Part shown: piece after piece, positions 40,453-42,732 of the stretch
Layout: the number at the start of each line of letters is the position of its first letter
Numbering within the stretch: the stretch's first letter is position 1
NCBI GenBank assembly: GCA_947456795.1
Contig: CANGTI010000001.1
Span: forward strand, 74,900 to 138,899
DNA length: 64,000 bases
Origin: Rickettsiales bacterium
Lineage (GTDB): Bacteria > Pseudomonadota > Alphaproteobacteria > Rickettsiales > Rickettsiaceae
Reading direction: 5' to 3'
The notes under the pieces: model-generated
Databases searched by the model: none
What the model was told of the DNA's origin: nothing
The model's input: only the letters and a program-made list of their open reading frames with translations
Translations under genes and position numbers: made by a program

Positions 40453-42732
40453 CTATCCAAGTTCCGTGGTCACGAATTCATGAGCGTACTCTGCTAACAT
40501 TGGCACCAGGAGGTTTACACGATCAGCGTGCTCTGTATGATCTAATGGGGAGAAGACGTGTGAACTTTGAAGAAAAGCCTGCTCCACAGTCTCAGCCGCA
40601 TCCATATTCTTTAAGTGCAGAGCTCTATCACCTGCTTCTACATAGAGCCTATCATTAACGTTATGGCAGATATTAGCAACCCTTGCGTGCATTATTTTAA
40701 TCTGGTCAAGTCGACCACTTGCAAAGTCTATAAAGTTACTAAATAAGTCCTCTTTTGGAAACGCGTTTCCTGCCCTTAGGCAAGCATCGACAGTACTTAG
40801 CGTGTTGCAGGCTTTAATCTTGTTAGTCGCCTGTTGAATAGCATCAATACTGTTAGAGTCGTCGTGATCATTTGTCAAAATCTCTAAATGAGGAGCATAA
40901 TCGTTCGCTTTTTTGTTGGTGAGCTGCAAAGCATCATGCATTGTTCTTATTGCCATCAAACCTGTATTATCCTTACTGGATTTTAAGAAGTTTTTTATAG
41001 AATCTGCAGTGCTTGTGTTACAGGATATAGCCTGGGACACACTGAGTGCAGATTCTTGCCATGCTTGAAAATCTTTTTGGCTAGTATGCAGGCTTTGGAT
41101 GTGCATTGCATTAAAAAACTCTTTCAAAGTGTTTTCATTACTAGATTCTTCAGACAGATCAACATCAAATTCACTCGCAAGATTGTCTACAAAATTCTTA
41201 GCTTTTTCGACAAGAGAATCACTGTCTACTAAAGATTGATAAGCCGTACTATAAAGTTCAATAGCCTCAGCAATTTTCAGGGTCATGCTTCCATTGTCTA
41301 CAGTATTGAAGGCATCAAGAGCAGTTGTTGCTGCTTGTTTGGCTTCTTCTGCTTTGTTTGCTGCTTTGTTTGCTTCTGCTACTTTGTCTGCTGCTGCTAC
41401 TACTGCTTTGTCTGCTTCTGCTTTAGCTGCTTTAGCTGCTTCTGCATCTGCTTTAGCTGCTTCTGCTTCTTCTACTGCTTTTGATGTATTAGACAGCAAT
41501 CCTGCTTCTGCTGCATCTGCTTTAGCTGCATCTGCTTTAGCTGCTTCTGCTTTAGCTGCTGCATCTGCTTTTAGTGTTTCGGCTTCTGCTTCTGCTTTTT
41601 TTACTGTTTCGGCTGCTGCTTTTGCTTCTGCTTCTGCGGCTGCTGCTTTTGCTTCTGCTTCTGCTTTGTCCTTATTTAGTTCAATTTTTGCTGACATCAG
41701 CTCAGTAAAAGAGTGATCATTGTCAAACTCCAGGCTGTCAAAGCTACGCTTGGTTACTTGACAGCTCGAGGCAAATTTCAGCATGTCTATTTTCTCTGCC
41801 ATGCTCTTTTTCATAAAGGGCAGCTGAGCGTCTACCTGAATATTTACGTAATAGTACAATGCATCTGATAGAGCCCCAGAGTTAGAAAGTAAACTCTTCC
41901 TACTAATCCAATGACATTGAAGAGGCATCTGATCAATAAGCGTACCTGCCTCTTCAAGGTCCTGCACATCTAAAAGTTGTACTTTTGCAGAGTTGGCGGA
42001 GGCGCTGACTGAGTGTGTTTGAGGAATGAGGCTTCCAAACTCGTATATATTGCCTGCTTTGTATTGGAAGAAATAATCTTGCTTCACATCCTCCTTAGCA
42101 ACTAAATGCTTATATTCAGTCTTTTTGGAACGCTTATTGCGGTCATCAACAAATTCGGTGTTAAGCATCCCAGATGCTGCCAACTTATCATAAACACTAT
42201 CAAGTCTTGAGAGAAAAGTACGTAGTGCGAGACCGTACTTTTCTATTAGTGTAGCACTACTCTTTTTGTCTGAGGTTGGGAGCTGCTTTAATGAATTTAT
42301 TATAGCGGTAGCGTCAAGTTCTTGTTGACCAGGGGCCTTTTTAGCGGCATTTTCTAAGTCTTGCTTCAATATTTCTTCAAGATTCACAAAGGAAAAAAGC
42401 TTAGAATTGAGGTCGGTAACGGGAGTTACTGCTTCTGCTTTTGCTGCTGCTTCTTTTTCTTTAGCTTCTGCTTCTGATTTTGTTGCTTCTTCTGCCGGGG
42501 TAGTACCTGCGCCGCCAGCTGCTGCCGGGCTAGCACCTACCACACTATTACCTGATTGACTTTGTTGGTCTTTTATTTGTTTCAGCAATTCAGTTTTTGT
42601 TTTGTTCAACGATGCAATCTCACTATTTATACCATCTCTTTGATTCCTGAATGCATTTTTTAATGATTGATGTTTGGCTGATAATTCTGCTTCTAATTTT
42701 CTTAGTTCTAGTTCTAGTTCTTCTTTATCCAT
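40453..42732 (-). CDS. 759-aa hypothetical protein with Ala/Glu/Lys-rich repeats and coiled coil (ORFan; no recognised domain)
   Basis: Long uninterrupted ORF with an ATG start. N-terminal charged coiled coil. Two A/E/K low-complexity tracts, including KADAA-type pentapeptide repeats, separate two non-repetitive regions of ~240 and ~290 aa. No signal peptide or TM segment seen by eye. Confidence 0.8.
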   Translation of the reverse strand: MDKEELELELRKLEAELSAKHQSLKNAFRNQRDGINSEIASLNKTKTELLKQIKDQQSQSGNSVVGASPAAAGGAGTTPAEEATKSEAEAKEKEAAAKAEAVTPVTDLNSKLFSFVNLEEILKQDLENAAKKAPGQQELDATAIINSLKQLPTSDKKSSATLIEKYGLALRTFLSRLDSVYDKLAASGMLNTEFVDDRNKRSKKTEYKHLVAKEDVKQDYFFQYKAGNIYEFGSLIPQTHSVSASANSAKVQLLDVQDLEEAGTLIDQMPLQCHWISRKSLLSNSGALSDALYYYVNIQVDAQLPFMKKSMAEKIDMLKFASSCQVTKRSFDSLEFDNDHSFTELMSAKIELNKDKAEAEAKAAAAEAEAKAAAETVKKAEAEAETLKADAAAKAEAAKADAAKADAAEAGLLSNTSKAVEEAEAAKADAEAAKAAKAEADKAVVAAADKVAEANKAANKAEEAKQAATTALDAFNTVDNGSMTLKIAEAIELYSTAYQSLVDSDSLVEKAKNFVDNLASEFDVDLSEESSNENTLKEFFNAMHIQSLHTSQKDFQAWQESALSVSQAISCNTSTADSIKNFLKSSKDNTGLMAIRTMHDALQLTNKKANDYAPHLEILTNDHDDSNSIDAIQQATNKIKACNTLSTVDACLRAGNAFPKEDLFSNFIDFASGRLDQIKIMHARVANICHNVNDRLYVEAGDRALHLKNMDAAETVEQAFLQSSHVFSPLDHTEHADRVNLLVPMLAEYAHEFVTTELG
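41340..41670. repeat. imperfect 15-bp-period tandem repeats (GCATCTGCTTTAGCT-like) inside the ORFan
   Basis: GCTTCTGCTTTAGCTGC and GCATCTGCTTTAGCTGC recur. On the coding strand they give AKADA / AEAAK units. Confidence 0.7.

Follow-up and report, generated by a model that had tools for sequence, protein, structure and literature searches.

ORF759 is located at positions 40453..42732 on the minus strand of the window (the whole 64,000-nt stretch of DNA analysed); it starts with ATG and codes for an acidic orphan protein of 759 aa, followed by a stop codon. The initial annotation had taken it from the ORF list with exactly these coordinates and as the longest unassignable ORF in the window; the ORF is genuine, and its rank holds among the ORFs scanned. 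The positional G+C contents are coding-like (GC1 0.55 > GC2 0.38 > GC3 0.31), and 759 stop-free codons at ca. 37% G+C have, by our own estimate, a chance probability of ca. e^-52. An identical sequence is present in three independent assemblies, and ORF759 is a genuine gene confined to a single uncultured freshwater lineage of Rickettsiales. Taken as a whole, it has native-like codon usage and a native-like GC3 (0.307 vs 0.315 ± 0.033); only the non-repeat domains deviate slightly, with a codon fit poorer and a GC3 higher than elsewhere in the window, and GC3 at this site lies above that of the flanks both in the window and in L005, one of the relatives sampled. The metagenome copies of ORF759 are identical to each other.

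The address of ORF759 is fixed: it lies directly 3' of ftsW–murG, on the same strand, and ahead of a convergent histidine kinase gene. The conserved upstream genes, ftsW (45102..43954; Pfam FTSW_RODA_SPOVE) and murG (43961..42885; Glyco_transf_28 and Glyco_tran_28_C), both on the minus strand, are followed by an AT-rich spacer of 152 nt (42733..42884, minus strand) with a 13-nt tandem repeat at 42843-42874. The minus strand of the spacer has no promoter or terminator match and a fold z-score of -0.12; as no terminator-like hairpin is found there, read-through from ftsW–murG is possible. A Shine-Dalgarno-like motif, GGTGA, precedes the ATG of ORF759 by 4 nt. On the 3' side, a structured region (40262..40419, minus strand) with an RNA fold of -69 kcal/mol (z = -3.4) forms two stable hairpins, at about 40388-40419 and 40262-40299, which are likely transcription terminators. 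The slot is closed by a gene on the plus strand coding for a hybrid histidine kinase/response regulator (36546..38228), 55% identical in L005.

Downstream of ORF759 lie ca. 2.2 kb of decaying non-coding DNA (the comparable gap in L005 is ca. 1.9 kb). Nearest to ORF759 is a remnant of the murG 3' end (40181..40254, minus strand), encoding KRTQNPKDAIIKAL followed by a stop; it copies murG nt 1032-1077 together with ca. 17 nt of the spacer at 85% identity (blastn E 1.8e-8) and has a Smith-Waterman score of 67 against 26 ± 4 for shuffles. The remnant is the downstream arm of the murG-repeat bracket noticed initially, which these values show to be real. Beyond it, a decayed gene (38718..39933, minus strand) survives as charged, helix-like fragments of 102, 68, 67, and 50 aa in three frames with stops between them. 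It has no similarity to the slot proteins of the relatives or to ORF759, and an origin by tandem duplication, with ORF759 and the dead gene as paralogues, was accordingly rejected; it was probably an earlier occupant of the slot. Its 3' end is duplicated by a 164-nt tandem repeat (38509..38813; 1.9 copies, 89% identical). An older and more decayed murG 3'-end remnant, from murG nt 878 onwards (38269..38470, minus strand; 75% identity, E 1.2e-10, Smith-Waterman score 111 vs 28 ± 4 for shuffles), abuts the stop codon of the histidine kinase gene. Remnants of the murG tail are thus found on both sides of a dead gene, at two depths, and the two remnants together with the dead coiled-coil gene suggest serial cassette insertion. 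That mechanism is drawn from one lineage, since L005 has no murG remnants at its slot and neither an integrase nor an IS element borders the slot.

The order of modules proposed for the protein in the initial annotation is correct overall, the length of the Ala/Glu/Lys tract aside; all of them are given here by coordinates on the minus strand. The charged N-terminus (MDKEELELELRK...) has no hydrophobic stretch, and residues 1-60 (42553..42732) comprise a long helix in the AlphaFold2 (AF2) model, possibly an oligomerising coiled coil, with residues 3-60 forming a single predicted helix at a pLDDT of ca. 70. Its a/d positions are hydrophobic in 44% of cases vs 15% elsewhere, an excess that shuffles show to be non-significant, and the single-register heptad signal is matched by 342 of 2000 shuffles. 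Of the coiled coil originally placed here the long helix stands, whereas the heptad pattern lacks significance, making a coiled coil plausible rather than proven. Residues 61-100 (42433..42552) are an Ala/Gly/Pro low-complexity linker with an AEAKEKEAAAKAEA tract (entropy 2.8 bits), for which the AF2 model gives no secondary structure and a pLDDT of less than 50. The non-repetitive N-domain, residues 101-345 (41698..42432), has no Pfam match and an unconfident AF2 model; it has a GC3 of 0.40 and a poorer codon fit than anything else in the window.

The Ala/Glu/Lys repeat tract comprises residues 346-476 (41305..41697), i.e., ca. 131 aa instead of the ca. 110 aa first described, and is evident from both nucleotide repeats and AF2 helices. 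Alanine makes up 42% and charged residues 36% of it. The DNA repeats have periods of 9, 15, and 27 nt, with a perfect 27-nt duplication at 41610-41664, and the protein repeats of 3, 5, and 9 aa are imperfect and extend over ca. 130 aa, or 17% of ORF759. AF2 predicts two helices, 343-409 and 418-476, with a pLDDT of 70-79 and the loop GLLSNTSK between them; the occupancy of their Ala-based heptad cores is 79% and 88%, values equalled by 86 and 3 of 2000 shuffles, respectively, and opposite-charge pairs at i+3/i+4 are in excess. On this model, the tract may be read as an Ala-zipper hairpin or a rigid stalk. The last module is an acidic C-terminal domain of 283 aa, residues 477-759 (40456..41304), with a net charge of -20 and a predicted all-helical structure at a pLDDT of 30-45. 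The AF2 models, made without homologues, are of low confidence (pLDDT 43 for full ORF759 and 37.5 for the C-domain alone), and a confident long helix covers only ca. 190 of the 759 residues.

The whole protein has a net charge of -34 and a pI of 5.03, the lowest of the 42 window proteins (median 8.36). The highest 19-residue Kyte-Doolittle mean is 0.71, in agreement with the lack of a signal peptide and a TM helix reported at the outset. ORF759 codes for a modular, acidic protein that is largely alpha-helical and has neither a Sec signal nor a membrane anchor.

The orphan status of ORF759 was upheld, with no true homologue in any library or among 1.84 billion representatives. Scans of Pfam, NCBIfam, PHROGs, and PADLOC gave sub-threshold matches only, no PDB sequence matched at E ≤ 1, and a word-indexed search of 5.8 billion proteins with full-length ORF759 returned the query alone. 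Because low-complexity words could saturate the candidate list of the latter search, both non-repetitive domains joined together served as the query for an exhaustive phmmer scan of the 1.84 billion representatives, which yielded ORF759 itself and the spurious P0002; this is a 687-aa array of 52-aa repeats, rejected as a homologue since its E value of 8.6e-9 sums nine weak matches of 21-26% identity. Two sub-threshold profile matches were rejected as well: MCP_Sipho (18 bits) falls on the Ala/Glu/Lys tract and is compositional, and the match to an SMC/JetC (MukB-like) ATPase amounts to 17 bits on the coiled-coil segment of JetC, with no SMC_N or AAA match. By tblastn, ORF759 was unmatched in 50,697 phage records and 72,556 plasmid records; the IMG/VR scan was also empty, and scans of metagenome contigs with ORF759 and with P0004 gave no match.

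The best named relatives of MurG come from an 'uncultured Rickettsiales bacterium' MAG (58% identity), Ca. Sneabacter namystus (43%), and Rickettsia (ca. 35%); a scan of genome contigs with MurG alone gave nothing, and one with a MurG alignment led to two relevant genomes only. After murG, every close relative sampled (MurG identity 58-93%) has a large same-strand gene without a Pfam family, coding for at least 671 aa on the P0004 contig (the relative with 93% MurG identity), at least 343 aa in L009, and 638 aa in L005/L006, while in L007 and L004/L010 only gene starts are available. The outgroup Ca. Sneabacter namystus has no gene at the slot position. The flanks of the slot, ftsW–murG on one side and histidine kinase–PBP1A on the other, are conserved, the flanking proteins being 43-75% identical. 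No similarity was found by BLASTP among ORF759, L005_638, and the L009 protein, by blastn and tblastx of the slot regions, by HMM search with the ORF759 and L009 proteins, or by hhalign of ORF759 against the L005_638/P0124 profile. The L005 slot protein is likewise limited to close relatives, and it has a 76%-identical relative. That the word search did not return the P0004 neighbour is uninformative because the protein collection does not keep all truncated-gene products: by exact sequence, the truncated-gene product P0124 is present in it, and the L009 and L007 products are absent.

The position of the slot is conserved across the clade and its content is not, a different large no-family gene occupying it in each lineage. 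The slot is syntenic, and ORF759 shows no homology to a housekeeping or any other family, the combination that the initial annotation had named as contrary to its proposal being absent. Four of the five slot proteins with an available N-terminus (L007 is known for 44 aa) carry an N-terminal low-complexity repeat rich in Ala/Gly/Pro/Gln, and the L005 and P0124 proteins, the only others for which a pI was computable, have values of 5.21 and 5.16, also far below the window median. The slot proteins could be true orthologues diverged beyond recognition and not replacements, a reading favoured by their shared architecture. The hypervariable slot and the layered murG remnants speak for the recent acquisition or rapid evolution first suggested; nevertheless, the locus itself is old, only its content turns over, and the overall codon usage of ORF759 is native-like. 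An additional orphan protein is in itself unsurprising for an endosymbiont-like genome; what is new is its context, a conserved murG-adjacent slot with variable content. Such a fixed address with lineage-specific content provides a PCR-addressable strain-typing marker spanning the interval between murG and the histidine kinase gene, with which one could ask whether the content of the slot tracks the host species.

Our best guess is that ORF759 codes for a fast-turnover, host-interface protein with predicted Sec-independent export, analogous to the Ehrlichia TRPs. The grounds for this secreted or surface reading are indirect: the lowest pI in the window, the repeats, the absence of a Sec signal, and the fast turnover. 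Turnover at this rate, with the reading frame kept open, would be expected of an interface protein under diversifying selection and not of a housekeeping protein. Host manipulation in Rickettsiales usually draws on lineage-specific proteins that carry repeats and lack a signal; the known examples come almost all from a few animal pathogens, while ORF759 belongs to an environmental, probably protist-associated lineage. TRPs are species-specific in sequence, and positional orthologues carry unrelated repeats in different species. Three of them, TRP32, TRP47, and TRP120, are acidic, repeat-bearing, signal-less substrates of the type I secretion system (T1SS) (PMC3417381), a system reported as conserved in all Rickettsiales (PMC11077975). 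ORF759 resembles the TRPs in its origin from Rickettsiales, its acidity, its repeats, and the lack of an N-terminal signal peptide or TM segment, and an uncleaved C-terminal export signal would be compatible with it. However, it has no sequence similarity to TRPs or RTX proteins (Pfam, NCBIfam, word search, and phmmer), it is less acidic (pI 5.0 vs ca. 4), its repeats are short, imperfect, and helix-forming (Ala/Glu/Lys) whereas those of TRPs are Ser/Asp/Gly-rich tandem repeats, and, unlike TRPs, it is mostly non-repetitive. The C-terminal criterion for T1SS substrates, taken from PMC3417381, is non-discriminating here: in the last 50 residues of ORF759, LDAVTSIF account for 60% vs 53 ± 6.5% in other window proteins (+1.1 SD) and KHPMWC for 16% vs 18 ± 5%. 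The 64-kb window comprises no T1SS gene, and its only secretion-system genes are the flagellar flhA and flgI.

The full explanation, combining slot turnover by cassettes, a diversifying interface protein, and predicted type I export, is put forward tentatively, at somewhat short of an even chance. New cassettes would insert into the slot anchored in the conserved 3' end of murG, possibly through homology-facilitated illegitimate recombination in which related strains supply the DNA, and every insertion would displace the older murG tail and slot occupant in the downstream direction and leave them to decay. Sec-independent export would be the most likely mechanism of delivery, the type I system being the best fit because ORF759 is acidic, repeat-bearing, and devoid of an N-terminal signal. 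In the protein, the N-terminal helix would oligomerise ORF759, the Ala-zipper hairpin would serve as a rigid stalk keeping the acidic C-terminal domain apart from the N-domain, and the domain so held off would bind a host or environmental target. Confirmation of the layered murG remnants in other lineages would make them a record of gene entry and death in a compact AT-rich genome.

In a stronger version, considered unlikely, the murG 3' slot would be a putative dedicated cassette-replacement locus for exported host-interaction proteins, with a 'stratigraphy' of past alleles. Related strains would supply whole genes for large acidic repeat proteins, with murG regenerated at each swap, and the exported cassette proteins would decide the interaction with a protist host. 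The slot resembles variable cassette loci, such as surface-antigen loci and defence 'hot spots', in its conserved flanks with unrelated content in each lineage and in the partial duplicates of a flanking gene at insertion points. It differs from them in comprising a single-gene cassette without a recombinase or mobile-element gene and in its setting in a compact, AT-rich Rickettsiales genome, with exchange inferred from one lineage, and from defence hot spots in having no match to a PADLOC defence family. If true, this antigenic or host-range variation system, with a cell-wall gene as the recombination anchor, would be without a described counterpart in Rickettsiales.

The location of ORF759 on the same strand directly after ftsW–murG, with no terminator between and terminators after it, could also indicate a cytoplasmic scaffold or cytoskeletal accessory protein, co-expressed with ftsW–murG and acting, like coiled-coil-rich proteins and polar organisers, in division or peptidoglycan synthesis, which would drift fast because it is mostly low-complexity helix. 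The slot position conserved across the clade, the long helices, and the lack of an export signal agree with such a function. Nevertheless, division and envelope proteins of this type are usually recognisable across families, while ca. 500 non-repetitive residues show no detectable similarity here even at 58-66% MurG identity; moreover, the confidently predicted helix is confined to a quarter of the protein, the outgroup Sneabacter manages without a gene at this position, and dead predecessors in the slot speak against an essential function. A scaffold role thus appears rather improbable.

Equally doubtful is a functionless or newborn ORF, acquired or arisen de novo, which in a drift-dominated genome would have remained open by chance, youth, and repeat expansion at a 'safe' location flanked by convergent genes and prone to gather junk DNA. 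Its strict orphan status, the decaying DNA adjoining it and the similar gap in L005, the poor codon fit and high GC3 of the non-repeat domains, and the perfect repeat duplications, a sign of ongoing slippage, would all suit such an origin. On the other hand, ca. 630 non-repetitive codons are stop-free at 37% G+C with coding-like positional G+C contents, large intact ORFs occupy the slot wherever the gene is complete or mostly recovered and the L005 protein has a 76%-identical relative, which implies that open frames are maintained, and ORF759 is framed by a Shine-Dalgarno-like motif and terminators. Even with a drifting, functionless ORF, the locus would illustrate cleanly how genes are born and die in such a site.

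FliK proteins are acidic, devoid of a signal peptide, rich in low-complexity sequence, and notoriously poorly conserved. ORF759 shares with them its acidity, the absence of a signal peptide, a modular structure with a long low-complexity or helical middle part, and very poor conservation, and the genome carries flagellar genes, flgI (650-1738) and flhA (52493-54547). A divergent flagellar type III export substrate, e.g., a FliK-like hook-length ruler in which an export region at the N-terminus would be followed by a long 'ruler' of helix or low-complexity sequence and by a switch domain at the C-terminus, is nevertheless very unlikely: ORF759, its C-domain, L005_638, P0124, and the L009 protein have no Flg_hook or flagellar family match at E ≤ 1, the C-terminal domain is predicted, in low-confidence models, as all-helical in contrast to the alpha/beta T3S4 domain, and ORF759 is not part of a flagellar operon, lying 39 kb from flgI and 10 kb from flhA. 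In the absence of a Flg_hook/T3S4 match and of a flagellar cluster, membership in the FliK family was rejected.

The direct repeats of the murG 3' end bracketing ORF759 resemble attL/attR of elements targeting the 3' ends of genes, and weak matches to a PHROG tape-measure profile and a JetC/MukB-like profile (E 2e-4 each) over the Ala/Glu/Lys tract might be taken to indicate that ORF759 belongs to a mobile element or prophage, as its cargo or as what is left of it. These matches are far below the family threshold and cover the biased helix only; that to PHROG 4211 (E 2e-4, 19 bits) spans residues 343-651 centred on the tract, and with no phage genes nearby a tape-measure protein was discarded. 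There is no integrase, transposase, or phage gene within 10 kb, the sole integrase-family gene (26454-27377) looks like XerC/D, and the phage, plasmid, and IMG/VR searches were empty, so that this highly improbable reading is largely refuted.

A TolA- or TonB-like envelope-spanning protein, to which only the composition of the tract, similar to that of TolA domain II, points, is practically negligible, since ORF759 has neither an N-terminal TM anchor, as seen from its hydropathy maximum, nor a TolA_C, TonB_C, or other Pfam/NCBIfam match (E ≤ 1, noise aside), there is no tol-pal or exbBD context (the neighbours are ftsW, murG, the dead gene, and the histidine kinase gene), and the tract is internal, between two large unique domains; the rejection of TolA in the initial annotation was right, the membrane anchor and the C-terminal domain both being missing. 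In composition, predicted long helix, and salt-bridge enrichment, the tract is like TolA domain II and the rigid helical linkers engineered from (EAAAK)n. The enrichment at i+3/i+4 is consistent with a stiff spacer, and ORF759 may act like a TolA-type spacer without being TolA.

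The main new finding concerns the position 3' of ftsW-murG, before the convergent histidine kinase gene, which in the window is occupied by ORF759, the gene for a 759-aa Ala/Glu/Lys-repeat protein. Each close relative sampled has, next after murG and on the same strand, a large gene without a Pfam family on record. The contig of P0004, whose MurG is 93% identical to that of the window, carries at this slot a gene of at least 671 aa, separated from murG by 138 nt as against 152 nt in the window; that of L009 (MurG 66%) runs off the end of its contig and has at least 343 aa. The slot gene of L005 and L006 (58%) is complete and codes for 638 aa; in L007 (59%) its first 44 aa precede the contig end, and in L004 and L010 (58%) only its start is present, the L010 contig ending within tandem AAAAWGASTGEAP repeats. 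In L005/L006 the slot gene is followed by ca. 1.9 kb free of ORFs and then by the convergent histidine kinase, PBP1A, and MiaB genes, as in the window. In the outgroup, Candidatus Sneabacter namystus, murG abuts the convergent flhA directly, with no gene between them. The identity of public MurG relatives to the window MurG falls from 93% (P0004) through 66% (P0005) to ca. 58% (several, P0006-P0009) and 53% in one case, and more distantly to 43% in Ca. Sneabacter namystus and ca. 35% in Rickettsia.

The slot proteins are alike in general build. Close to the N-terminus, a low-complexity repeat in which Ala, Gly, Pro or Gln abounds is present in four of the five slot genes with a known N-terminal sequence, ORF759 included (the L007 one is known for 44 aa); in the L005 and L009 proteins unique sequence follows this repeat. 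The pI of the L005 protein is acidic (5.21), as is that of its relative P0124 (5.16). No similarity was detected among ORF759, the L005 protein (L005_638) and the L009 protein by pairwise BLASTP, in blastn and tblastx comparisons of the slot regions, or with a profile of L005_638 and P0124, run by hmmsearch against ORF759 and the L009 protein and by hhalign against ORF759. The L005 protein was found only in its own lineage and in one relative at 76% identity. The flanking proteins of the window and L005 share 72% (FtsW), 58% (MurG), 55% (histidine kinase), 67% (PBP1A), 43% (M23 peptidase), and 75% (DnaQ) identity. In the window as in L005, the slot gene exceeds every flanking gene in GC3. Outside the repeats GC3 is 0.36-0.40 for ORF759 residues 101-345 and 477-759 and 0.37-0.38 for L005 11360-13276, as against 0.25-0.40 (mean 0.315) for the window flanks and 0.27-0.34 for those of L005, and the non-repeat domains of ORF759 have the lowest codon-usage fit computed for the window. 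The locus behaves like the variable cassette sites between conserved core genes, except that there is one gene per cassette and there are no mobility genes.

Contig breaks or scaffold gaps lie inside the murG-downstream gene in L004 (5337-5420), L007 (4892-5023), L009 (1574-2602), L010 (11448-11615), and L006 (about 11400-11560), and two large contigs, of 571 kb and 256 kb, from the lineage of P0009 likewise end less than ca. 700 nt from murG. It seems that the repeats defeat short-read assembly or that these genes vary within populations.

The window also retains what look like traces of earlier events at the slot. In the 5' to 3' order of the minus strand, murG (43961..42885) comes first and is followed by an unstructured spacer of 152 nt, ORF759 (40453..42732), and a 3' region that folds strongly (z = -3.4) and contains a pair of hairpins. 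Inside the spacer, a 13-nt unit (TTTGATGACTGAT) is present in 2.5 tandem copies (42843-42874); the spacer lengths of the window and the 93% MurG relative differ by approximately one such unit. Downstream on the same strand there is a murG remnant (40254..40181) comprising the last 46 nt of murG and the first spacer nucleotides, 85% identical and encoding KRTQNPKDAIIKAL*, then, after ca. 275 nt, a dead, coiled-coil-like gene (39933..38718) of charged, helix-like fragments in three frames. The 3' end of the latter (IKAQIEKQAKDQSRPEALNED...) is duplicated in a 164-nt tandem repeat (38509-38813; 1.9 copies, 89% identical). An older, more decayed remnant (38470..38269, minus strand), corresponding to murG from nt 878 onwards and 75% identical, extends as far as the convergent kinase gene, terminating at the stop codon of the latter. 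Both remnants score far above shuffled sequences (67 vs. 26 +/- 4 for the younger and 111 vs. 28 +/- 4 for the older). The ca. 2.2 kb between ORF759 and the histidine kinase gene (38229-40452), with no intact gene, has a G+C content of 40%, above the window average; a comparable 1.9-kb ORF-free gap follows the slot gene of L005 (13277-15223).

A simple tandem duplication of ORF759 and the dead gene is excluded, because the two share no similarity. The simplest reading, drawn from this one lineage, is that the murG 3' end received insertions twice in succession. With each event a substitute tail of murG and another gene behind it would have arrived, displacing the tail and the occupant present until then. 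Such events would be consistent with homology-facilitated illegitimate recombination involving DNA from a related strain. No recombinase gene was found near the slot in the window, and no murG remnants in L005.

ORF759 itself is certainly a maintained reading frame, since it has ca. 630 non-repetitive codons, a coding-like positional G+C content (GC1 0.55, GC2 0.38, GC3 0.31, at a genome G+C content of roughly 37%) and a GGTGA motif 4 nt 5' of the ATG; its length and coordinates are exactly those of the initial annotation. A 143-aa Ala/Ser/Leu ORF on the opposite strand (41285-41716, plus strand), facing the Ala/Glu/Lys tract, is no gene but an artefact that mirrors the GCN-rich repeats. The protein contains 125 Ala, 70 Lys, and 66 Glu residues and has a net charge of -34; with a pI of 5.03 it is the most acidic of the 42 window proteins computed (median 8.36), and it has no hydrophobic segment (best 19-residue Kyte-Doolittle mean, 0.71).

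The modular layout described initially holds apart from two points: the Ala/Glu/Lys tract, at residues 346-476, is ca. 131 aa long rather than ca. 110 aa, and the N-terminal "coiled coil" is a long helix, confidently predicted (residues 3-60, pLDDT ca. 70), whose single-register heptad signal is not significant relative to shuffles. AlphaFold2 predicts the tract as two helices, 343-409 and 418-476, connected by the loop GLLSNTSK. With Ala counted as core, both show heptad periodicity, with core occupancies of 79% and 88%, which 86 and 3 of 2000 shuffles, respectively, matched, and opposite-charge pairs at i+3/i+4 are enriched in the tract (25 vs. 16.4 +/- 3.3). It would form a stiff Ala-zipper hairpin or stalk, a rigid helical spacer that separates the two unique domains of the protein. 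The tract DNA is made of 9-, 15-, and 27-nt repeats, and slippage there is recent, as one 27-nt duplication is perfect. AlphaFold2 without homologues gave no usable model (pLDDT 43 on full-length ORF759, 37.5 on its isolated C-domain), so fold comparison is not meaningful.

No family match above noise was obtained in Pfam, NCBIfam, PHROGs or PADLOC, and no PDB sequence match at E <= 1. In a word-indexed search of 5.8 billion proteins ORF759 matched itself alone; the identical sequence is present in a 290-kb NCBI contig, a Logan assembly, and an ENA assembly. Because low-complexity words may have crowded the candidates of that search, the two non-repetitive domains were joined and used as a phmmer query in an exhaustive scan of 1.84 billion representatives. 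It returned ORF759 and one other protein, P0002, judged a spurious homologue since its E value of 8.6e-9 arises only from summing nine weak repeat matches. P0002 has 687 aa, built of 52-aa tandem repeats (MSEKEVASQQNYTVYLSHVWERGCLTAKLHSILISCLRKRLPHSKTTQYTYL), and illustrates how repeat arrays inflate phmmer significance. As judged by these searches, ORF759 is a true orphan.

The features bearing on function are the lack of a Sec signal and a membrane anchor, the repeats, the most acidic pI in the window, the rigid helical spacer, and a possible co-transcription with ftsW-murG, since ORF759 is followed but not preceded by terminators. The weightiest is that the gene turns over or diverges far faster than any of its neighbours, with long open frames retained. 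The favoured, though tentative, reading is a Sec-independent exported protein of the host interface, because this combination is that of interface proteins under diversifying selection. The best-documented parallel in Rickettsiales is that of the Ehrlichia tandem-repeat effectors, substrates of type I secretion that are acidic and carry no signal peptide (PMC3417381); the type I secretion system is reported to be conserved in all Rickettsiales (PMC11077975). ORF759 resembles these proteins in acidity and in lacking a signal peptide, but homology to them is absent, its repeats and C-terminal composition speak neither for nor against, and membership in their class cannot be claimed; a type I secretion signal heuristic computed for ORF759 does not discriminate here. 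The initial observation on ORF759 was confirmed, and its interpretation partly supported.

A fast-drifting cytoplasmic scaffold linked to division is an unlikely alternative to host-interface export. Equally unlikely is a functionless young ORF, a reading consistent with orphan status. A FliK-like flagellar export substrate is improbable. The organism is, judging from its MurG relatives, an uncultured member of Rickettsiales, probably of fresh water to go by assembly names that resemble lake-metagenome codes. It bears flagellar genes, flgI (P-ring; 650-1738, minus strand) and flhA (export gate; 52493-54547, minus strand), and a flagellar type III export apparatus may exist; membership of ORF759 in the FliK, tape-measure, and SMC-like families fails. 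A mobile-element remnant is slightly less probable still, and plasmid, phage, and IMG/VR searches gave no match. A TolA/TonB-like protein is scarcely credible: the composition of the helical tract is the sole match to TolA, which the initial annotation had rightly set aside, as ORF759 differs from it in membrane anchor, C-terminal domain, and gene neighbourhood. By itself ORF759 is an unsurprising kind of gene for such an organism, belonging with the lineage-specific repeat proteins at a hypervariable locus known in Rickettsiales; of greater interest are the conserved address with unrelated content and the layered murG remnants.

Two further window genes lack a family assignment. The first (13421-14815, minus strand; 464 aa) lies in the most G+C-rich kilobase of the window (42%), and its sole match is a faint one to an outer-membrane beta-barrel (E 8e-4, below threshold). 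The second (58497-60239, plus strand) codes for a 580-aa protein without a Pfam family and is followed by a PD-(D/E)XK nuclease gene (60136-61113, plus strand). It is not an orphan, because Ca. Sneabacter namystus has conserved the pair (L008 16864-19420; 562 aa without a Pfam family, then PDDEXK_1). The two window ORFs overlap by ca. 100 nt, and the listed TTG start is probably too far upstream.
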